Positions 9,611-20,670 of a stretch of DNA of 64,000 nucleotides are shown here, piece by piece (the stretch's first letter is position 1; each line of letters starts with the position of its first letter). Position numbers and translations under genes: made by a program. Below the pieces are notes generated by a model. The model was given only the letters and a program-made list of their open reading frames with translations. It had not been told where the DNA came from and searched no databases. Source of the DNA: Pseudomonas sp. (lineage in GTDB: Bacteria > Pseudomonadota > Gammaproteobacteria > Pseudomonadales > Pseudomonadaceae); contig NZ_JBLWTV010000007.1 of the NCBI RefSeq assembly GCF_048269965.1, positions 171,663-235,662 on the forward strand, given 5' to 3'.

Positions 9611-10573
9611 TCATTCCCGCCGCAAAAAGTGCACGCTGAACAACTGCGCCGGGTCGCGCCACATGGCGACCGAGGCGAAGCCGCATGCGCCCGCTAGATC
9701 ACGAAAACCGCTGGGCGTGTACTTGTAGGAGTTCTCCGTGTGCAGGGTTTCGCCAGCGGCGAACTCGAACACGCGATCCTCGATGCGCACCCGCTGCGCC
9801 TGGCGGCTGAGCAGATGCATCTCGATGCGTGACTCGGCTTCGTTGTAGAAGGCCCGGTGCTGGAAGCGGCGCGGGTCGATGTCGCTGTGCAGCTCGTTGC
9901 GGATGCGCTCGAGCAGGTTGAGGTTGAACAGCGCAGTGACCCCGGCCGCATCGTTGTAGGCGCGCTCCAGCACCTGGCGGTCTTTCACCAGGTCCACGCC
10001 GATCAGCAAGCCGCTGCCTGCCGGCAGTGCCTGATGCAGGTTGCGCAGAAAGGCGCGCGCCGCGTCCGGGTCGAAATTGCCGATGCTGGAGCCGGGAAAG
10101 AACGCCAGCGGCCGTTGCCCCAGCGCCTCGGTGGGCAGCTTCAAGGGCTGGCTGAAGTCGGCGCACAGCGCGTGCACGTCGAGCCAGCGATAGTCGGCGG
10201 CCAGGCGGCGCGTGCTGCCATGCAGAAAATCGCGGGAGATATCGATGCCCAGGTAACGCGCCGGGCGCAGGGCTTCGAGCAGCAGGCGGATCTTGCGACT
10301 GGCGCCGCTGCCCAGCTCCACCAGGCTGGCGTTGCGCCCGGCCAGCTCGGCGATATCGTGCGCCGCCAGGCGCAGAATGGTTTCCTCGGTGCGCGTCGGG
10401 TAGTACTCCGGCTGCAGGCAGATCAGCTCGAACAGCTGCGAACCGCGATGATCGTAGAAGAACTTCGGCGACATCGCCTTCGGGCTGGCCGCGAAGCCGC
10501 GCAACGCTTCTTCGCGCAACGACTCCAGCTCCGGGCTGATGGATTGTTCGTGGGTACGGATTGCCAATGCCAT
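9611..10573 (-). CDS. egtD: L-histidine N-alpha-methyltransferase (ergothioneine pathway)
   Basis: Full-length resemblance to EgtD as I remember the mycobacterial sequence: FFYDHRGSQLFELICLQPEYYPTRTEETIL, LVELGSGASRK, AYNDAAGVT, ESRIEMHL. Confidence 0.85.
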   Translation of the reverse strand: MALAIRTHEQSISPELESLREEALRGFAASPKAMSPKFFYDHRGSQLFELICLQPEYYPTRTEETILRLAAHDIAELAGRNASLVELGSGASRKIRLLLEALRPARYLGIDISRDFLHGSTRRLAADYRWLDVHALCADFSQPLKLPTEALGQRPLAFFPGSSIGNFDPDAARAFLRNLHQALPAGSGLLIGVDLVKDRQVLERAYNDAAGVTALFNLNLLERIRNELHSDIDPRRFQHRAFYNEAESRIEMHLLSRQAQRVRIEDRVFEFAAGETLHTENSYKYTPSGFRDLAGACGFASVAMWRDPAQLFSVHFLRRE

Positions 10574-10575
10574 GC

Positions 10576-11868
10576 TCAGAGCTCCCTGGCCAGGCGCAGG
10601 CCGGAGAACTGCCAGCGCATCGTGGGGTAGAAGAAATTGCGGTAGGTGGGGCGCACGTGGTCTTCAGGCGTAGCGCAGCTGCCGCCGCGCAGCACCATCT
10701 GCCCGGACATGAACTTGCCGTTGTACTCGCCCAGGCTGCCGCCCAGCGGCCGAAAGCCGGGGTAGGGCCGGTAGGCGCTGGCCGTCCATTCCCAGACATC
10801 GCCATAGAGCTGCTGCAGGCCCGTGCCGGCACCTGCTGCCACCGGCTGCAGGTGATCGTTCTCGACGAAATTGCCCCACAGCGGCTCCTCCTGCGCGGCC
10901 ACTTCCCATTCCTCTTCGCGCGGCAAACGCGCCTGCGCCCAGGTGGCGAAGGCCTCGGCCTCGAAGTAGCTCAGGTGGCAGACCGGCGCATGCAGGTCCA
11001 GCTCGCGCGGGCCGCCCAGGGTCAGCTCCAGCCAGTCGTCACCCTCGCGCAGCCAGTACAGCGGCGCCTGCCAGCCGGCACGCTGGATATGGTCCCAACC
11101 GTCCGCCAGCCACAGCGCCGTGCTGCGATAACCGCCATCGCGGATGAACTGCAGGTACTCGCCATTGCTCACCGGCCGGCTGGCCAGCTGAAAGGCCTCG
11201 ACGAACACCCGGTGGCGCGGCCGCTCGCAATCGAAGGCAAAGCCATCGCCGGTATGGCCGACATGGCGCAGCCCGGCGGGAAATTCGATCCATCGCAGCT
11301 CGCCGGCCGGCGCGCCGCCCGGCTTGAGGTCGTGGCGATAGACCGGGCGCAAGGGGTTCTGCGCCAGGATGTGCTTGATATCCATCAACAGCAGCTCCTG
11401 ATGCTGCTGCTCGTGCTCCAGCCCCAGCTCGATGCGCTGCAACAGCTCATCGGACAGCTCGCTGTGCGGCTGGCTGAGCAATTGCTGCATGGCCAGATCG
11501 ACATGGCTGCGATAGGCGTACACCTCGCTCACCGTCGGCCGCGACAGCAGCCCGCGCCGCGCCCGCTCGAAGGGCGTGCCGTGGGTCTTGTAATAGGAAT
11601 TGAACAGATGGTCGTAGCGCGCATCCAGCGGGCGATAGCCCGGCAGAAAGGGCTGCAGCACGAAGGCTTCGAAGAACCAGGTGACATGCGCCAGATGCCA
11701 CTTAGGCGGGCTGACGTCCGCCATGCTCTGGATCACATAGTCCTCGGCCTCCAGCGGCTCACAGAGCCGCTCACTGGCGGCGCGCACCCGCTGATAACGC
11801 TGCCATAGTGGTTCGAGGTGCGGCGGTGAAACGGCGATCCTGCTGGTGCGGTCTCGCATAACACGCAT
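10576..11868 (-). CDS. egtB: Sulfoxide synthase EgtB (DinB-like N-domain plus FGE-sulfatase-like C-domain)
   Basis: HLAHVTWFFEAFVL and EQQHQELL (DinB_2-like metal site), then GDVWEWTASAYRPYPGF and RGGSCATP (FGE-like). Stop lies 3 nt upstream of the egtD start. Confidence 0.85.
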   Translation of the reverse strand: MRVMRDRTSRIAVSPPHLEPLWQRYQRVRAASERLCEPLEAEDYVIQSMADVSPPKWHLAHVTWFFEAFVLQPFLPGYRPLDARYDHLFNSYYKTHGTPFERARRGLLSRPTVSEVYAYRSHVDLAMQQLLSQPHSELSDELLQRIELGLEHEQQHQELLLMDIKHILAQNPLRPVYRHDLKPGGAPAGELRWIEFPAGLRHVGHTGDGFAFDCERPRHRVFVEAFQLASRPVSNGEYLQFIRDGGYRSTALWLADGWDHIQRAGWQAPLYWLREGDDWLELTLGGPRELDLHAPVCHLSYFEAEAFATWAQARLPREEEWEVAAQEEPLWGNFVENDHLQPVAAGAGTGLQQLYGDVWEWTASAYRPYPGFRPLGGSLGEYNGKFMSGQMVLRGGSCATPEDHVRPTYRNFFYPTMRWQFSGLRLAREL

Positions 11869-12038: not shown

Positions 12039-12566
12039 TCAGCGCGCCGCCCCGGCTCGAAAACGTCCACGCCACCAGCGCGCCAGCCACGATTGAGGCT
12101 CGCGCGGTGCTGAGTGGGTCTGCCGATGGAAGCGCGGCAACTCGCCCAGGGCGATCCACAGCTCACCCTGCCACTCCAGCAGATTGACCTGCTGATTGTC
12201 CCAGGCCATCAGGCAGCGGGATGGCTCATGAGCGGCCCACGCCGCACTGTCGCGCAGCGCTGGCAAGGCCACATGGCTGAGCCAGCGGCGCAGAAGACGG
12301 TTCTCCGGATGCGAGAAGCGCCACAGCGCCCGGTACATGCCCGACTCACTGAGCACCTCCACCGTCTCCAGCTGCCCGCTGGCCAGCTGGAAATGCACCG
12401 TCCGCACCTGGTCGGCATCCATCAGCCGGCAGATGCGCTCCGGGTGGCGATGGCCCAGCAAGCGCGCAAACTCCCAGGCACAGACCCACGGCTGGCGGTC
12501 GATCATCACGCCGCGCAACGGACGGTTATGCCGCATCAGTACGATGGGGACGTAGGCATCTTCCAT
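12039..12566 (-). CDS. Bro-N domain protein (prophage antirepressor-like)
   Basis: 175 aa. ESGMYRALWRFSHPENRLLRRWLSHVALPALR matches the conserved core of Bro-N/antirepressor N-domains. Divergent from an XRE HTH gene. Confidence 0.7.
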   Translation of the reverse strand: MEDAYVPIVLMRHNRPLRGVMIDRQPWVCAWEFARLLGHRHPERICRLMDADQVRTVHFQLASGQLETVEVLSESGMYRALWRFSHPENRLLRRWLSHVALPALRDSAAWAAHEPSRCLMAWDNQQVNLLEWQGELWIALGELPRFHRQTHSAPREPQSWLARWWRGRFRAGAAR

Positions 12567-12593
12567 AAGGCCTCCCGGCTGCTTGGTTCACTG

Positions 12594-12614
12594 TATCTGA
12601 AAATCAGATATCTG
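12594..12614. promoter_or_regulatory. Overlapping palindromes in the Bro-N/XRE divergent intergenic region (candidate operator)
   Basis: TATCTGA-AAA-TCAGATA (12594-12610) overlaps the perfect 10-bp palindrome CAGATATCTG (12605-12614). A further AGATAT half-site follows at about 12621. Confidence 0.5.
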
Positions 12615-12652
12615 GAGGTTAGATATACCGTGACTGTCCTGTCAACGGACGG

Positions 12653-12934
12653 ATGCCTCCTGTGGAAAAGTCGGTTTATCGAGACGAGAACCTGATTTTC
12701 TTGAAATTGCTCAAACAGTGTCGGGTCGAGGCAGGGCTGACCCAGGACGACTTCGCCAAAGCGCTCGACCGCCCACAGTCGTTTGTCAGCGATGTGGAGC
12801 GTGGGCTGCGTCGGCTGGATCTGATCCAGCTCCGGGATATCTGTCAGGTGCTGGGCATCAGCTTGAGCAGCTTTGTGCAGCGCTTCGAGGATGAGTTGGC
12901 TGGCAATAGTGGTGTGGACACAGGAAGGAGCTAA
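12653..12934 (+). CDS. XRE/Cro-CI family HTH transcriptional regulator
   Basis: 93 aa with a clean HTH_3 pattern: LTQDDFAKALDRPQSFVSDVERGLRRLDLIQLRDICQVLGISLSSF. Confidence 0.8.
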   Translation: MPPVEKSVYRDENLIFLKLLKQCRVEAGLTQDDFAKALDRPQSFVSDVERGLRRLDLIQLRDICQVLGISLSSFVQRFEDELAGNSGVDTGRS

Positions 12935-13015
12935 GGCTCCGGGTGGCGGTGCACCCAGGGCGATGTGCCGTCGCAGAGGATAATGAATCTCTCCCCACGT
13001 CATCTGGCGGCGACG

Positions 13016-13051
13016 ACGCATCAGCACGATGGGGATCAAGGCATCTTCCAC
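13016..13051 (-). pseudogene. Decayed duplicate of the Bro-N gene 5' end (GTG start, about 12 codons)
   Basis: 13018-13060 matches 12533-12575 at 37 of 43 positions by hand alignment. Encoded MEDALIPIVLMR compares with MEDAYVPIVLMR. The rest of track ORF 12536..13051 is antisense to the XRE gene. Confidence 0.6.
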
Positions 13052-13174
13052 AAGGCCACCTGATTGTCAGCCGCCTATGGCGGGTGGGTTCGAACGTGCG
13101 GGCAGGGGAATGCGCACGCATGGCGAGTCTGGAATGAGGGGTATTTGGTAGACTCTTAAGCGGCGATGCAGAAG

Positions 13175-13212
13175 GGTCCTAATTGGGACCAATATAGGTC
13201 CCCTTTGGGACC
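13175..13212. promoter_or_regulatory. Two adjacent palindromes upstream of the second HTH gene (candidate operators)
   Basis: GGTCC-taattg-GGACC (13175-13190) and GGTCCC-cttt-GGGACC (13197-13212), ending 20 nt before ATG 13232. Confidence 0.5.
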
Positions 13213-13231
13213 CTTGTCAATAGAGGGTGTG

Positions 13232-13471
13232 ATGGATCTGCCGGCAAAACTGAAGGCACTACGGATGCACGAAGGCCTCACGCAAGGTGACTTTTGTGAG
13301 CAACTGCAGATCAGTCTGAGCACCTACAAGAAGCAAGAGCTTTCCCTGCGGTCGGATATCAGCGCCACGGTTCTTCTAAAGGTCACCAATCACCCGAGGT
13401 TCAAGAAGTACACCCTCTGGCTGATGACAGGCGACACGGCACCGGAGTGTGGGCAGGTCAGTCCGCTGTGA
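13232..13471 (+). CDS. Small phage-repressor-like HTH protein
   Basis: ORF 13166..13471 trimmed to ATG 13232 (SD GAGGG). HTH: LTQGDFCEQLQISLSTYKKQE. The C-terminal KYTLWLMTGDT resembles short Cro/CI-type regulators. 79 aa. Confidence 0.65.
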   Translation: MDLPAKLKALRMHEGLTQGDFCEQLQISLSTYKKQELSLRSDISATVLLKVTNHPRFKKYTLWLMTGDTAPECGQVSPL

Positions 13472-13816
13472 GGTTTTGGTTGTGGAGTAAAGGATTATGA
13501 GTTGCCTCGAAACGCTTCAAACCCAGCAAAACCGTGAATAGCTTAATGCAAGTAAAATAAGCTGAAAGCAGCGTCGTTACTGGGCTTGAGCGTAATTTTG
13601 CAAAAGCGACAGAAGCTGGACGCTGTACCGTCAGTGTACTGTTTTTTGTACTGCGATGGCTTCCAGTGCAAGCTGCCACATTGGTTTGCATTGCACGGGT
13701 AATCCGCAGCGTTTTCGACTCATTGGGGTTCTACATGCAGTTATGTTGAGCTAGGGCTAAAGAAATCGTCAGCGCTAACTGGCTTGTGAATATGCTATTA
13801 CATGGTGCCCTAACTT

Positions 13817-14029
13817 TTATTGGGTTCTTTGATAGCTAAATGAGTTCATTATGTGAGCTCTGAAGTATACCCCGTGAGAGCTGGCGCCCATTAAGTCGGT
13901 GTATATAGACTCTGGTACTCCGTAGTATTCGTAGATGCGACCATTGAGAAACTCAATTTCGAGTGTTTCAGTTGACGGGTCATAACCGATTGAGGCGAGG
14001 TTACTAGATCCGACCTGTACACGTTCCAT
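13817..14029 (-). CDS. KTSC-domain protein (stand-alone, 70 aa)
   Basis: VGSSNLASIGYDPSTETLEIEFLNGRIYEYYGVPESIYTDLMGASSHGVYF fits the KTSC pattern (SSNI..GYD...L.VEF..G..Y.Y..VP...Y..L..A.S.G.YF). ATG lies 5 nt after the HerA stop, with AAGGA inside the HerA 3' end. AT-rich like its neighbours. Confidence 0.75.
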   Translation of the reverse strand: MERVQVGSSNLASIGYDPSTETLEIEFLNGRIYEYYGVPESIYTDLMGASSHGVYFRAHIMNSFSYQRTQ

Positions 14030-14034
14030 TTTGA

Positions 14035-15807
14035 TTATCCTTGATTGTTGGTTTGAGAACGCCAGCTATTTATTAGCTCTTTATAGTTTTCTACTTCCTT
14101 TGGTTTTTTCCAGGAATCCGCAACGCATGGGTCTTTACTGTTGGGGTACTTATCGTCTGGTAATAAGTTAAATCTGCAGCGTGTAGGTAGCTTTGCAGCT
14201 TCCCCTACAATTATGGCTTCGCCAGTTCTTAGGATTGGGAGAGTGTCTACTATGCCAGACAAGCCTTCGGACATTGCGGATTTAACTATGCCTCTGTCAG
14301 TGGTGTTGTTTATCCTTAATGAAATAATCGTGCCGCATTGAGATAAAATTGTTTCGTCAATTTCAGAGGGCCTTTGGCTTACTAGCATTGCGCCAACACC
14401 GAATTTACGTCCTTCTTTAGCAATTCGCTGAACCATTTCTTTTGCAAGACCAGTTTCAGATTTGGAAAGATATCTGTGTGCTTCTTCAAGAACTAAGAGC
14501 AACGGCCTTTTTCTCATTCCTGCCTGTAGCTCTCGGCCCCATATAGAAACCTCAAATAGCACATCTAGAATAGTTCCAAGTAATAGGCTGAGTCGCGAAG
14601 ATGGCATTCCCGACAAGTCAAGAATTGTTATTGGTTTTTCATGGCCGAGCCACCCTTCAACAAGTGCGTCTAAATCTTTTTCTATAACGCCATTTTTGTT
14701 TGGGCTCCATTCGCCGGGCTCTAACATAAATGAATATTGTGTGTCTGCTAGTCTTGACTTCATTAAGTCAAGCTGTCTCTTCATTAAACCTGCGCCACCT
14801 TTAAATGGTGGGGTATTTCCAGGTGCCGGAGGCTGAAATTTTGGTGCTATAAGGCTTTCACAGTCGCCCAAACCATTTGTGGCGTAGGCAGGCACTGTCT
14901 GGTCCTTATCCATCCAGTTCACATTATCTAGGAAACATAGTTCATGCCAAATTTTTTTAATGCTGTACGGAAGAGGTGTTGAGCTTGTAACTCTATCCGG
15001 GTTGACACCGTCGAAGTTATTGGCGGTAATGCTGTTTATTTTTTCAGAAACTGTTTTATCTAAAAAGATCGCTTTTTGGCTGTCACTTAAAGTTCCACAG
15101 AGAAATTCCATTAGGTGTGTCGGAGATATGCACCAGTAAGGCACGTATAGCTTGTTCTCAGCTTCAGGGAGAACTGAAAAAACATTAGCGATGTCGCCTA
15201 GGGCTGATTGGTATTCCCCATGTATGTCTATAAGTAGTATGCGAGCGGAAGGCATGTTTATTTTTTCCGCCGCTGTGACCATGGATCTCAATATGCTAGC
15301 TGTACTAGTAGATTTCCCTGATCCGGTTGATCCGAATATCGCGGAATGCCTTGTGACTAGTTTGTCTAAGTCCAAGCTAACGCTTATGCCGTCTGAGCTC
15401 GAAAGTGTCCCGACGTTAAAGTGGCCATCAATGTCCTTGCCAAATATTTTTTTCAGGTCACTGTCTACTACTATGTGTACCTCATTACCTATGCTCGGGT
15501 ACTCGCTAATGCCGCGTTCAAACTCACCGGCAACTATTTCCCCAATGAGCTCGATTTTTATCCAGCGACGATCAAGGTGGATGCCGTCTTGATCGTCTAA
15601 CTGAGACGACTCGCTGGAGCCGGCGATAACGCCGTACAAGTTATTATATCCAAGCAATATTTTTACAAAGCTACCAACCTGGCCAATTCGATAGTTTCTA
15701 CCTTCCAGTATGACTATGCCTGACTCCACAGAATCGGCGAGTTCAACAACTGCCGAGGAGCTTGAGACGGCGCTAATATTGCCAAGCAGTGTGGGGGAGT
15801 TATTCAT
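14035..15807 (-). CDS. HerA-type hexameric ATPase/helicase partner of SIR2
   Basis: HAS-barrel-like N-terminus, Walker A GSTGSGKST, Walker B LLLVLEEAHRYL, and SQRPSEI. Start moved from the track start (15867) to ATG 15805-15807 (MNNSPTLLG), which overlaps the SIR2 stop within ATGAATAA. 590 aa. Confidence 0.85.
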   Translation of the reverse strand: MNNSPTLLGNISAVSSSSAVVELADSVESGIVILEGRNYRIGQVGSFVKILLGYNNLYGVIAGSSESSQLDDQDGIHLDRRWIKIELIGEIVAGEFERGISEYPSIGNEVHIVVDSDLKKIFGKDIDGHFNVGTLSSSDGISVSLDLDKLVTRHSAIFGSTGSGKSTSTASILRSMVTAAEKINMPSARILLIDIHGEYQSALGDIANVFSVLPEAENKLYVPYWCISPTHLMEFLCGTLSDSQKAIFLDKTVSEKINSITANNFDGVNPDRVTSSTPLPYSIKKIWHELCFLDNVNWMDKDQTVPAYATNGLGDCESLIAPKFQPPAPGNTPPFKGGAGLMKRQLDLMKSRLADTQYSFMLEPGEWSPNKNGVIEKDLDALVEGWLGHEKPITILDLSGMPSSRLSLLLGTILDVLFEVSIWGRELQAGMRKRPLLLVLEEAHRYLSKSETGLAKEMVQRIAKEGRKFGVGAMLVSQRPSEIDETILSQCGTIISLRINNTTDRGIVKSAMSEGLSGIVDTLPILRTGEAIIVGEAAKLPTRCRFNLLPDDKYPNSKDPCVADSWKKPKEVENYKELINSWRSQTNNQG

Positions 15808-17044
15808 TATGATCCCCTTCAGGTGTACCCTCTTCAGCCTCGGCTGGTTGGGTGCCGGCAACTGCAATAAGAGCTTCGATATCTATCGGGTCCCTTATTG
15901 TGTTACTTGAAAAGTCGCCTCCGGCGGTTGCTAGGAATCTCGCTAGTCGACTAAAATCTCCCAATAAAAAGTTGCCTTCACTATAGTACTCGCCTCTTAT
16001 ATTTCTCCAGCCTTTACTTGGCAGTGCGCCTGTTCTCCACTTGGCCTCCACTCCATTGATAATGGCGCCATCTTTACAGTATGCACTTATGCCGGGACAT
16101 TTTAGTGCTAGATCTCGTATGTATGTTTCGGATTCGAGTTTTCCGTATTGAAACGCTAATAGGGCTGAAGAGGGATTGGCCTGCAAGCTTTCCAGCAATC
16201 TTGATGAGATGTGTGCGTCAGCGAATGAAAAGCCAGTTGAAATTAATAGGCTGTCAGGCTCGAGAATGAAATTTCTTAGCCGCTCAAATAGTGAAGAAAA
16301 TGGTGCGGCTTGGGTTTGATCATATTTGATGTGTGATGGGTAAACCATGCTTGCGTTGTTGGAGCGTGGGATTCTGATAATTTCATTTTTATCGTTTTTC
16401 TCCCACCCAATAGATCCATGAAGTTTCCATAGTCTTACCCATCGTGAAGGAAGGTCGTTTTTAGAAATGCTTGACGGGTCAAAGAAAGCATCTCTTGCAC
16501 CACTAAAGCCATCGAAATACGGTGTCTTAGAGCGTTCTAGTGCCTGTTCTAGCAAGAGGTCATAGTTTGTTGTGAAAACCTCTACGCCATGTTTTCTATT
16601 TACGCCATTAATCCAAGATACTAACTCTGAGTAAGGTGTTTGCCCTAGCGGTAATTCTTTGCTTACTGCATCCCTAATTAGGTTGCATATTTTTTCAGAT
16701 AGTTCTAGGAATTCGATTGAATTACAGCCATAAACAATTGAATCGCCAATGACTTCATTCAGGGCCCGTATTTTTGAAAGCACTTTCTCTAGGTTTGGGC
16801 TGAGAATTGATTCCTCAAGATCTTGATAGACTTTCAACTCCTTGGCGGAAAGGTTCTCTTTAACGGTCTTTGTCAATCCTTGAAGATTGGGGATCAGTGA
16901 TATCCAGTCGTCATTTGAGGGCCCTATATTAATGCTTACCGGAGCTCCTGCTCCCATAAGAACACCAATTTTCTTCTTTCCGTTACTAGCCAGCTGACGG
17001 AAGCCAAACATATACTGGTCCGGGTTATGTGTCGAATCACTCAT
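15800..17044 (-). CDS. SIR2-family (SIR2_2-like) NAD-utilising effector
   Basis: 414 aa with GVLMGAGAPVS, VFTTNYDLLLEQA, LWKLHGSIGW and GFSFADAHI, the hallmark blocks of defence-type SIR2 domains. ATG 17042-17044 is preceded by AAGGAT. Confidence 0.85.
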   Translation of the reverse strand: MSDSTHNPDQYMFGFRQLASNGKKKIGVLMGAGAPVSINIGPSNDDWISLIPNLQGLTKTVKENLSAKELKVYQDLEESILSPNLEKVLSKIRALNEVIGDSIVYGCNSIEFLELSEKICNLIRDAVSKELPLGQTPYSELVSWINGVNRKHGVEVFTTNYDLLLEQALERSKTPYFDGFSGARDAFFDPSSISKNDLPSRWVRLWKLHGSIGWEKNDKNEIIRIPRSNNASMVYPSHIKYDQTQAAPFSSLFERLRNFILEPDSLLISTGFSFADAHISSRLLESLQANPSSALLAFQYGKLESETYIRDLALKCPGISAYCKDGAIINGVEAKWRTGALPSKGWRNIRGEYYSEGNFLLGDFSRLARFLATAGGDFSSNTIRDPIDIEALIAVAGTQPAEAEEGTPEGDHNE

Positions 17045-17179: not shown

Positions 17180-17950
17180 TTAAAGGCTCTGCATCGTCCT
17201 GCACCTCGGAAAGCCCGAGCATCCCCAGAACTGTTGTCCCATTTTCGGGCCTGTCTTCACCGTGCGGATCAGCAGCGCATTACCGCATCTCGGGCATTGC
17301 CGCTCGGCTGTCGGATCACTCCGGCGTTTGAGGTTTTGCACGTGCTCGCGGTGGGTGGCGAGGGTCGGCGAGCGGCGGCCGGTTTGTAGGGCGTGCAGCA
17401 TGGCGTCGACTTCAGCCTCGCTGAATACCGCCTGCTGGAATGATTTGATGTAGCGGATAAAGCCGATGCCCTGGGTCACGTTGGCCGGCACTTCGGTCTT
17501 GAAGGTGCTGCCGCCGACGAATGTGATGACCGAATGCAGATGCTCGGGGCTGACGCCCAGGGTGGCTTCCAGGGCTTTGAGGTGTTTGTAGTTCTGGCGC
17601 AACGGGTTCTGGAACTTGAAGGTGCGTTTGTAGAGCTTCTGCGTCCACTGCGCCTGTTTCTCGCTGCCGAAGATCCAGCCGCTCATGTTCTTCGTTTCCA
17701 GCACGAAGATGCCGTAGGGCGAGAGGAATACGTGGTCGATCTGCGTGGTGCCGTCTGGCGTGTTCAGGGTGATGTTGTGCAGGCGGCGGTAGGTCTGCTT
17801 GTCCAGCTGCCAATGGGCGAACAGGCGTACCAGCAGTTCACCGATATGCCCCTTGGCCCAGGGCGATTTGAGCAGGCCGATCAGCAGGGCTGCCGGGATG
17901 AACCAGGTCAGCATGCCCCAGACCTGGGCGACTATCGGGCTGTAATCCAT
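17180..17950 (-). CDS. Membrane-anchored NERD-domain nuclease-like protein with C-terminal topoisomerase-type Zn ribbon
   Basis: N-terminal TM (WGMLTWFIPAALLIGLL), a NERD-like core (GHIGELLV...IDHVFLSPYGIFVLETKN), and C-terminal CPRCGNALLIR...FWGCSGFPRCR. SD AAGGAAG. Confidence 0.75.
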   Translation of the reverse strand: MDYSPIVAQVWGMLTWFIPAALLIGLLKSPWAKGHIGELLVRLFAHWQLDKQTYRRLHNITLNTPDGTTQIDHVFLSPYGIFVLETKNMSGWIFGSEKQAQWTQKLYKRTFKFQNPLRQNYKHLKALEATLGVSPEHLHSVITFVGGSTFKTEVPANVTQGIGFIRYIKSFQQAVFSEAEVDAMLHALQTGRRSPTLATHREHVQNLKRRSDPTAERQCPRCGNALLIRTVKTGPKMGQQFWGCSGFPRCRTMQSL

Positions 17951-19219: not shown

Positions 19220-20341
19220 TCAGCGTGCTATCTGGTAACGGGTGCTGCGCCCACCACCGGGCAGTCGCTCGATGCAGCCCTTCTCCATCAGGTCGCTCAG
19301 ATGACGGGTGGCGGTGGCTTTGGATACCTTCGCCACGGCTTGGTACTGCGCCGCGCTGATACCGTTCTCGAAACCCTTTTCGCCGCCATCGAGCAGGCGA
19401 TTCAGCACTTTTATCTGCTCGGTCGATAGGGGTTGGCTGCGGTGTGCCTGCCAGAAGCGCGCCTTGACCAGCACGCGGTCGATACGAGCAAGGGCCTGCT
19501 CCAGGCTGTTGAGTAAGGTTGCGAGAAACCACTGCAGCCAGCTGGTGATATCCAGCCCACCTTTCTGACTGGCTTCGAGGATGCGGTAGTAACCGGCGCG
19601 GTCGTTGAGAATGCTAGCGGACATCGCGTAAAAGCGGATGGCCTGCTGTTCGCCCTGAGCCAATGCCAAGTCGGTAATGGCGCGAGTGAGGCGGCCGTTG
19701 CCGTCATCGAAGGGGTGCAGGGTCACGAACCAGAAATGGGCGATGCCGGCGCGGAGAAAGGGATCTAGGCTGACATCGTTGCGGCTGCTTTTGAACCAGG
19801 CGAGAAAGTCCGCCAGTTGCGCTTCCAACCCGGCGCGAGGCGGGGCTTCGAAATGTACGGTCGGTTGGTCGATGCGACCGGAAACCACCTGCATGGGCTC
19901 TTCGCCGCGCAGAGTGCCGATGTGTAATGGTCGAGCCAGCAGTTGGTCGTCGCTAGGGAATAGCCAGCGGTGCCAGGTGAAAAGTCGTTGTTCATCTAGC
20001 GGTTCTTGATGCAAGCGGGTTGCGTCGAACAGTAACTCTGCCAGGCCTTCGGAGCGCGAGGTGGTGCGGCCTTCTTCGTTCAGCCCCAGGCGCCGCGCCA
20101 GTGATGAACGCACCGAGCCGACATTTAGCTGCTCACCCTCGATGGCTGAGGAGGTGACGATGTTTTGCAGCATGGCATCCAGGCTGCTCTGCACTTCGGT
20201 GTCACTGCCCACCGCACCGAGCATCCCCAACAAACGTCCCTGAGCCTGACTGCAAGCGCGCAGCAGCGGGGCAAGCGTTTCGCCTTGCCAACTGAAGTGC
20301 GGCCAGTCGGGCTGCTGCCAGATCCAGAGCGGGTCATTCAT
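19220..20341 (-). CDS. Fic-family protein (DUF4172-type N-terminus, class II inhibitory helix, C-terminal wHTH)
   Basis: Active-site loop HPFDDGNGRLTR (HxFx[DE]GNGRxxR) and an inhibitory motif SSAIEG ([ST]xxxE[GN]) upstream of it. N-terminus MNDPLWIWQQPDWPHFSW. C-terminus ISAAQYQAVAKVSKATATRHLSDLMEKGCIERL. Confidence 0.85.
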   Translation of the reverse strand: MNDPLWIWQQPDWPHFSWQGETLAPLLRACSQAQGRLLGMLGAVGSDTEVQSSLDAMLQNIVTSSAIEGEQLNVGSVRSSLARRLGLNEEGRTTSRSEGLAELLFDATRLHQEPLDEQRLFTWHRWLFPSDDQLLARPLHIGTLRGEEPMQVVSGRIDQPTVHFEAPPRAGLEAQLADFLAWFKSSRNDVSLDPFLRAGIAHFWFVTLHPFDDGNGRLTRAITDLALAQGEQQAIRFYAMSASILNDRAGYYRILEASQKGGLDITSWLQWFLATLLNSLEQALARIDRVLVKARFWQAHRSQPLSTEQIKVLNRLLDGGEKGFENGISAAQYQAVAKVSKATATRHLSDLMEKGCIERLPGGGRSTRYQIAR

Positions 20342-20593: not shown

Positions 20594-20670
20594 TGGTGGG
20601 CCCAGCAGGACTTGAACCTGCGACCAATCGATTATGAGTCGAGTGCTCTAACCAACTGAGCTATAGGCCC
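20594..20670 (-). tRNA. tRNA with CAU anticodon, most like tRNA-Ile2 (lysidine type, ileX-like)
   Basis: Minus strand reads GGGCCTATAGCTCAGTTGGTTAGAGCACTCGACTCATAATCGATTGGTCGCAGGTTCAAGTCCTGCTGGGCCCACCA (77 nt). The cloverleaf folds by hand. The anticodon arm CGACTCATAATCG resembles E. coli ileX rather than elongator Met. G1-C72 are paired, so it is not an initiator. ileX also lies downstream of rpoD in E. coli. Confidence 0.9.

Follow-up and report, generated by a model that had tools for sequence, protein, structure and literature searches.

The KTSC-domain gene that follows SIR2 and HerA in this Pseudomonas genome most probably encodes an integral subunit, made as a protein of its own, of a Paenibacillus-type SIR2-HerA anti-phage system; we put the probability of this reading at about 0.8. 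The window, that is the whole stretch of 64,000 nucleotides that was analysed, carries the three genes as consecutive cistrons on the reverse strand. The split three-gene form constitutes neither a new class of defence system nor a new mechanism, and the evidence for its reading comes from the layout of the genes, from the constancy of KTSC next to related HerA genes, where the two are found both fused and separate, and from the homology of KTSC to the C-terminal end of a structurally solved HerA.

Organization of the cassette and of the surrounding island

The first cistron (15800..17044, reverse strand) codes for a 414-residue SIR2 NADase effector which matches Pfam SIR2_2 (E=2e-17) and the PADLOC SIR2 model PDLC04094 (E=8e-157), has the Paenibacillus SIR2 8w9l as its nearest solved structure (E=2e-79), and keeps its catalytic motifs intact, with TTNYD at residue 158 and KLHGS at residue 207. 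The second cistron (14035..15807, reverse strand) encodes the HerA ATPase, a protein of 590 residues recognized by Pfam DUF87/HerA_C and by the PADLOC HerA model PDLC04105 (E=2e-151). Its ATG start at 15807 produces an 8-nt overlap with the SIR2 stop (ATGAATAA), and both the Walker A motif (GSTGSGKS, residue 159) and the Walker B motif (LLLVLEEAH, residue 436) are intact. The SIR2_2 and HerA/DUF87 genes are thus adjacent and co-oriented, all the SIR2 and ATPase motifs are present, and the cassette can be identified, from its genes, as a predicted SIR2-HerA anti-phage system.

The third cistron (13817..14029, reverse strand) specifies a protein of 70 residues whose match to the Pfam KTSC family (PF13619) reaches 88.8 bits against a gathering cutoff of 25 (E=1.8e-25) and extends over profile positions 2-58 of 58, that is 57 of the 58 positions, in agreement with the full KTSC pattern that an earlier note on this DNA had recognized in the open reading frame; no PADLOC model matched this protein. 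Direct reading of the sequence places the HerA stop TAA at 14037..14035, the spacer tcaaa at 14034..14030 and the KTSC ATG at 14029..14027 (CAA GGA TAA tcaaa ATG), leaving a gap of 5 nt between HerA stop and KTSC start. The Shine-Dalgarno sequence AAGGA of KTSC (14038..14042, reverse strand) falls within the final two sense codons of HerA (CAA GGA), 8 nt 5' of the KTSC ATG, and both the 5-nt distance and the location of this signal inside the HerA coding end had been correctly given before. Such a start/stop layout is typical of translational coupling. The GC content is 0.446 for KTSC, 0.440 for HerA and 0.434 for SIR2, hence about 44% in all three genes, against 0.64-0.66 (~65%) in the flanks, which bears out the low GC that KTSC had been said to share with the cassette. 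A scan for promoters and terminators returned nothing beyond shuffle expectation, and no such site was present between HerA and KTSC. The two coding sequences are separated by a stop codon and the 5-nt spacer and lie in differing reading frames, so they do not form a covalently joined product. A programmed frameshift or readthrough that would join them was considered and rejected: KTSC does lie in the -1 frame in the window, yet no slippery heptamer accompanies it, and among related loci, where the gap can be anything from -11 to +51 nt, the frame of KTSC relative to that of HerA is not conserved.

The low-GC cassette is located within a variable region of about 8-9 kb, with egtD/egtB-like genes on one side and a tRNA-Met on the other. 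The former (9611..11868, reverse strand) encode an EgtD-like histidine methyltransferase (Methyltransf_33) and an EgtB-like DinB/FGE-sulfatase protein, an ergothioneine-type biosynthesis pair belonging to the high-GC flank. Downstream of KTSC there is a non-coding stretch of 345 nt with 46% GC (13472..13816), followed by two divergently oriented XRE-type HTH genes (12653..12934 and 13166..13471, forward strand) and by a gene for a Bro-N domain protein (12039..12566, reverse strand); the region 12039..13471 looks like the remnant of a mobile or prophage element. Directly upstream of SIR2 lies a gene for a protein with a NERD domain and a topoisomerase-type C4 zinc ribbon (17180..17950, reverse strand), which is placed outside the low-GC cassette because its GC content is 0.60 (0.603) and its GC3 0.82, and which may be a separate defence-type gene. 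A gene for a DUF4172-Fic/DOC protein (19220..20341, reverse strand) adjoins the tRNA-Met (20594..20670, reverse strand), and beyond the latter come a PAS-GGDEF-EAL gene and rpoD. The tRNA-Met is probably one boundary of the variable island around the SIR2-HerA-KTSC cassette, and the part of the island that was examined showed no integrase.

Linkage of KTSC to HerA in split and fused forms

An alignment of 16 HerA homologues was scanned against one genome per species (185,579 species), a search that, being seeded on HerA, was blind to KTSC. It returned 80 loci, 73 of which have a HerA 38-70% identical to that of the window. A KTSC open reading frame lies directly 3' of HerA, on the same strand, in 73/73 of these loci with HerA at least 38% identical, and this is the count that the earlier note had set as a check on its proposal. 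KTSC is a separate gene in 72 of the 73 and is fused in frame to HerA in the remaining one (L048, Solidesulfovibrio magneticus, 687 aa). The seven distant loci (HerA 28-31% identical) lack KTSC; a divergent KTSC 3' of the distant HerA genes (L074-L081) was also considered and dismissed, since no plausible small open reading frame occurs there. Across loci, KTSC starts at -11 to +51 nt from the HerA stop, the commonest gap being -1 (20 loci) and the next 8 nt (12 loci); as the commonest arrangement is an overlapping stop/start, it can be taken as a signature of HerA-KTSC translational coupling.

The loci are distributed over Gamma-, Beta- and Alphaproteobacteria, Bdellovibrionales, Desulfovibrionales, Bacteroidota (Pedobacter), Bacillota and Acidobacteriota MAGs. 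Among these several phyla the cassette is met in flanks that are unrelated to one another, with an Mrr-like gene alongside in one locus (L001) and a filamentous-phage-like block with an integrase in another (L002). Pairwise distances of KTSC correlate with those of HerA (r=0.80, Mantel p=0.001), as do those of SIR2 (r=0.95), and the mean divergence of KTSC (0.47) is close to that of the two large proteins (0.44 and 0.46), indicating the same overall rate. Where dS is unsaturated, the dN/dS of KTSC is 0.02-0.07, denoting strong purifying selection. Its invariant residues are R3, S8, S13, G15, E24, E26, F27, Y33, Y35 and P39. Conservation in 73/73 related loci together with these dN/dS values makes the KTSC gene far more than a chance open reading frame, and linkage, co-divergence and purifying selection identify it as a constant, selected member of the cassette and no passenger. 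The claim that KTSC was acquired with SIR2-HerA and is transcribed with it is likewise upheld by the 73/73 loci, the co-divergence and the unrelated flanks.

HerA proteins 98% identical to that of the window carry a Pseudomonas annotation and were found on 742 contigs. In a Logan contig (L085, SRR23274247, 1-11842) a type I R-M operon is split between hsdS and hsdM by the SIR2-HerA-KTSC cassette, after which comes McrBC, one defence system being nested within another. Decaying or disrupted relatives of the cassette were also found among the loci: HerA is broken by an interruption of ~0.8 kb in one (L068, 6960-7779), HerA and KTSC are both fragmented in two others (L071 and L082), and in a fourth (L061, 3459-5953) SIR2 has been replaced by IS21-like IstA/IstB and the HerA N-terminus is truncated. 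This last locus, without a SIR2 match, was considered as an endonuclease-HerA-KTSC variant, but the IS21-like IstA/IstB upstream and the truncated HerA identify it as a disrupted SIR2 locus.

Fused proteins proved abundant when the Solidesulfovibrio fusion was used as query against a collection of 5.8 billion proteins. Among the best 120 clusters considered, 108 are ~680-aa proteins with DUF87, HerA_C and KTSC, one of these fused clusters carrying the JGI name 'Helicase HerA, central domain/KTSC domain', and the rest are ~610-aa proteins without KTSC. The ~680-aa fusions, such as those of Methylorubrum sp. SL192 (P0307) and Solidesulfovibrio magneticus (L048/P0289), belong to the HerA clade of the window (48-65% identity) and have the same SIR2 partner and the same KTSC module, but a two-gene architecture; the Methylorubrum protein, for instance, follows SIR2 in a two-gene operon (L086). 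In the Logan contig, where HerA is unfused (P0293, 613 aa), a KTSC gene for 70 aa comes next and overlaps it by 4 nt. In the NJ tree built from 216 HerA core sequences, fused forms (109) and split forms (100) are intermingled, and the basal ingroup lineages are split; parsimony on this tree requires 8 changes, one of them the gain of KTSC with respect to the KTSC-less outgroup, a number which is approximate since the tree is rough. These sequences show that HerA and KTSC have been fused and split repeatedly, the two forms interconverting.

In the fused proteins the KTSC module begins with a Met that hardly varies (M616 in the alignment), matching the starts of the free KTSC proteins, and the linker ahead of the module is variable, with about 20-27 aa. 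When a fused protein is modelled with AF2, this linker (residues 590-615, ~26 aa) has a pLDDT below 50, and KTSC folds well and independently; the monomer model deviates from the cryo-EM chains by an rmsd of about 19 Å when KTSC is included and of 3.6 Å without it. The invariant Met and the linker predicted as disordered fit an independently folding, tethered domain that could be separated or joined with no functional loss.

The KTSC module of the Paenibacillus HerA

The SIR2-HerA system of Paenibacillus sp. 453MF, which is the one of Garb et al. 2022, provides the closest comparison. In a sequence search of the PDB, the best match of the window HerA is by far 8wiv_A, the 696-aa HerA of this system (E=3e-141), with residues 3-585 aligned to residues 9-603 of the chain. 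The same chain is the best match of the 70-aa KTSC protein, whose residues 2-68 align to residues 629-695 (E=5.8e-17), and for this query it outranks 7x8c and 4rgi, the two crystal structures of KTSC proteins that stand alone. Modelled with AF2 (pLDDT 95.6), the window KTSC has the order strand-strand-strand-strand-helix-helix-strand and superposes on 8wld_L, 8wof_B and chains of 8wiv with a TMq of 0.90 and an rmsd of 1.1 Å over 69 columns at 45% identity, and on 7x8c and 4rgi with TM values of 0.97 and 0.93, respectively, which places it in the KTSC fold. It follows from the superposition on the 8wld, 8wof and 8wiv chains that the KTSC module was built in the cryo-EM models of the solved complex. 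The number of modelled residues per HerA chain in these entries goes from about 480 to 673, and such varying chain lengths imply that KTSC is ordered in some protomers only.

The solved Paenibacillus complex (8WIV/8WLD/8WOC, PMC11472057) thus supplies the closest solved homologues of both large proteins of the window, and the two systems are composed of the same modules, namely SIR2, a HerA core with arm helices, and KTSC. Residues 576-696 of the Paenibacillus HerA were named the 'C-terminal arm domain' and termed 'unique' by Liao et al. (NAR 2024, PMC11472057). The authors described that this domain wraps the adjacent RecA-like domain in trans and stabilizes the split-spiral hexamer, mainly through helices alpha19-20, and that formation of the complex activates the NADase, ATPase and nuclease activities and confers defence; KTSC is nowhere mentioned in that paper (PMC11472057). 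These arm helices, alpha19-20, are kept in the window HerA, and just the distal KTSC module is separately encoded. In Paenibacillus, KTSC is joined to HerA through a linker as residues 629-695 of the 696-aa protein; the window HerA, on the contrary, ends after the arm helices, at 590 aa, and KTSC begins 5 nt downstream as a 70-aa cistron of its own. With HerA and SIR2 nearest to 8WIV and 8W9L and KTSC homologous to HerA 629-695, the cassette groups with the Paenibacillus-type subclade, and sequence homology indicates that in the window the KTSC module at the tip of the arm has its counterpart in a gene of its own.

This identity alters part of what had been proposed from the window alone. The statement that described SIR2-HerA systems consist of two genes agrees with the literature found, but the 'two genes' of the Paenibacillus system already contain KTSC, and for this reason the window is best described as the three-gene, or split, architecture of a known system. 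An undescribed three-component variant was foreseen, and the three-gene layout is indeed absent from the defence literature searched and has no PADLOC model; the component itself, however, is known. It is not a new third component, given that the same module forms residues 629-695 of HerA in a validated and solved system and is present in more than 100 fused clusters.

Other solved systems are more distant. The SIR2-HerA systems of E. coli (also called Nezha; 8SUB, 8J4U) and of S. aureus (8YHO/8YHX) are of the same type, combining a SIR2 NADase with a HerA hexamer, and act by an abortive-infection-type NAD+ depletion. Their HerA proteins match that of the window with E=1e-27 to 1e-30 and show 19-20% identity in the fold search, and no KTSC module is detectable in their solved chains. 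DUF4297-HerA (HerA-DUF; 9C1M, 8XAU, 8ZIQ) contains the second-closest solved HerA (E=6e-61 to 6e-53); its effector is a Cap4-like nuclease, whereas that of the window is SIR2, and in this case also KTSC was not detected in the solved chains. The stand-alone KTSC proteins 7X8C, from Methanolobus vulcani, and 4RGI, the YPO2434 protein from Yersinia pestis, have the same size and fold as the window KTSC, with identities of 46% and 40%, respectively; unlike the window protein they are not known from a HerA context, they carry no functional assignment, and a literature search for both entries found no paper.

Possible role of the proposed KTSC subunit

If KTSC is an integral subunit, coupled translation would yield the protein in a ratio of about 1:1 with HerA, and the free protein would dock non-covalently outside the HerA hexamer, at the place taken by the tethered domain in the fused form. 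The brace helices of the arm would remain within HerA itself, and docked KTSC may serve as a non-catalytic module for recognition or for modulation of assembly, most plausibly by binding nucleic acid or another conserved ligand; such binding could help to couple phage sensing or DNA loading to activation of the SIR2 NADase. KTSC would not, in this scheme, be an antitoxin that neutralizes a toxin. Since the module is ordered in some protomers only, and its position was not reproduced by AF2, docking is perhaps weak or conditional; the ~19 Å misplacement and the partial order also suggest that the contact is probably made in trans. KTSC is likely to be more than a brace, because the brace helices stay in HerA, the motif is conserved elsewhere and the module recurs. 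Its function may nevertheless be generic and not specific to HerA, as the family is very large and promiscuous.

The KTSC family comprises 9354 representative clusters, and its contexts include phage copies, operons of the E2-E1-KTSC type, tandem arrays and fusions to TPR, Sel1, ankyrin and Mrr_N domains. In the Halorubrum sp. CBA1229 plasmid NZ_CP054586.1 (L087, 2181-5213), an E2/UBC-ThiF(E1)-KTSC operon situated beside an integrase ends in a KTSC gene that overlaps the ThiF gene by 4 nt and whose product is 50-56% identical to the window KTSC; KTSC also overlaps the ThiF gene in two further haloarchaeal plasmids (H29 and H34). E2-ThiF-KTSC adds another operon of the conflict type, unrelated to SIR2-HerA, in which the last gene is a coupled KTSC. 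A 68-aa stand-alone KTSC protein from a Nostoc commune HK-02 plasmid (AP018332.1, 15428-15631; H31) is annotated as 'lysS_2: lysyl-tRNA synthetase', which is an annotation error spread from the domain name. Iyer et al. 2022 (PMC9503650) briefly referred to a coupling of HerA and KTSC genes that they had not published, and likewise to unpublished HerA+KTSC+endoDNase variants; none of these variants occurred among the sampled HerA loci.

Stand-alone KTSC proteins were moreover found in 54 phage genomes, with 40-49% identity to that of the window (phage records H1-H25), and no HerA was seen near the phage genes. Examples are those of Providencia phage PSTNGR2lys (L083, 4001-4210) and Caulobacter phage Seuss (L084, 4001-4213), the latter located just 3' of rIIA/rIIB amid small early-type genes. 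The phage proteins could be mimics of the host KTSC subunit. The broader notion, in which unrelated defence systems such as HerA-SIR2 and the haloarchaeal E2-E1(ThiF)-KTSC operons share KTSC as a portable module for sensing or as an adaptor, and the phage copies are anti-defence mimics, is speculative and unlikely; if true, the mimics would compete with host KTSC for its docking site or its ligand, and systems with the split three-gene layout would be particularly vulnerable to them.

Other explanations for the presence of KTSC have to be weighed against that of an integral subunit. The earlier note had considered that KTSC might be an antitoxin-like brake or an assembly inhibitor, holding the SIR2-HerA NADase off until infection, an idea that suits a small protein tightly coupled to, and co-inherited with, a toxic effector operon, and also a module ordered in some protomers only, as would be compatible with a regulated and releasable contact. 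The same module is, however, part of one polypeptide with HerA in the Paenibacillus system and in over 100 clusters, and such repeated in-frame fusion is hard to square with a releasable or degradable antitoxin; when the Paenibacillus complex assembles, KTSC included, its NADase, ATPase and nuclease are switched on and defence results (PMC11472057), and SIR2-HerA systems of the E. coli and S. aureus types function without any KTSC. A brake is accordingly disfavoured, and we regard it as very improbable; a sensory or regulatory function of the module itself may still apply. Even less can be said for KTSC being an unrelated small cargo or remnant gene that came to lie after HerA by chance: although bacteria, archaea and phages very often carry KTSC as a stand-alone gene, the gene keeps the same position and orientation in all 73 related HerA loci, among unrelated flanks and in several phyla, it diverges together with HerA and it occurs in in-frame fusions, so that the conservation counts already refute this reading and its probability is negligible.

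A further proposal is that KTSC goes beyond a structural appendage and acts as a trigger or substrate recognition module, a sensor of nucleic acid or of another ligand that is portable between defence systems, the split form permitting its independent exchange or titration. This is a refinement of the integral-subunit explanation and no true alternative to it. It is favoured by a motif kept across contexts, with the 46% identity to the archaeal stand-alone protein and the 40% identity to Yersinia YPO2434, by the position of KTSC as the coupled last gene of the unrelated E2-E1(ThiF) operon in haloarchaeal plasmids, by its tandem arrays and its fusions to TPR, Sel1, ankyrin and Mrr_N domains, and by the prediction of DNA or RNA binding made by Aravind and co-workers (PMC9503650, PMC7824862). 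On the other hand, full-text literature searches found no binding experiments on any KTSC protein, the relevant statements being two remarks of that group. The recognition module is for these reasons put forward tentatively, as a possibility that we consider less probable than not, and a specific sensing role, in which KTSC would couple the engagement of DNA or of a trigger by HerA to the activation of SIR2, is held with similarly low confidence.

The integral-subunit reading bears on how these systems are handled and studied. SIR2-HerA has been catalogued and cloned as two genes, and constructs or annotations made on this basis would omit a conserved third gene in a large clade; omission of KTSC could yield inactive or misbehaving systems, including the cassette that is common in Pseudomonas. 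The recognition of KTSC in what was termed a unique C-terminal arm ties a domain of unknown function with more than 9000 clusters to a tractable, solved complex, and the natural pairs of split and fused forms offer material for trans-complementation on the role of KTSC.
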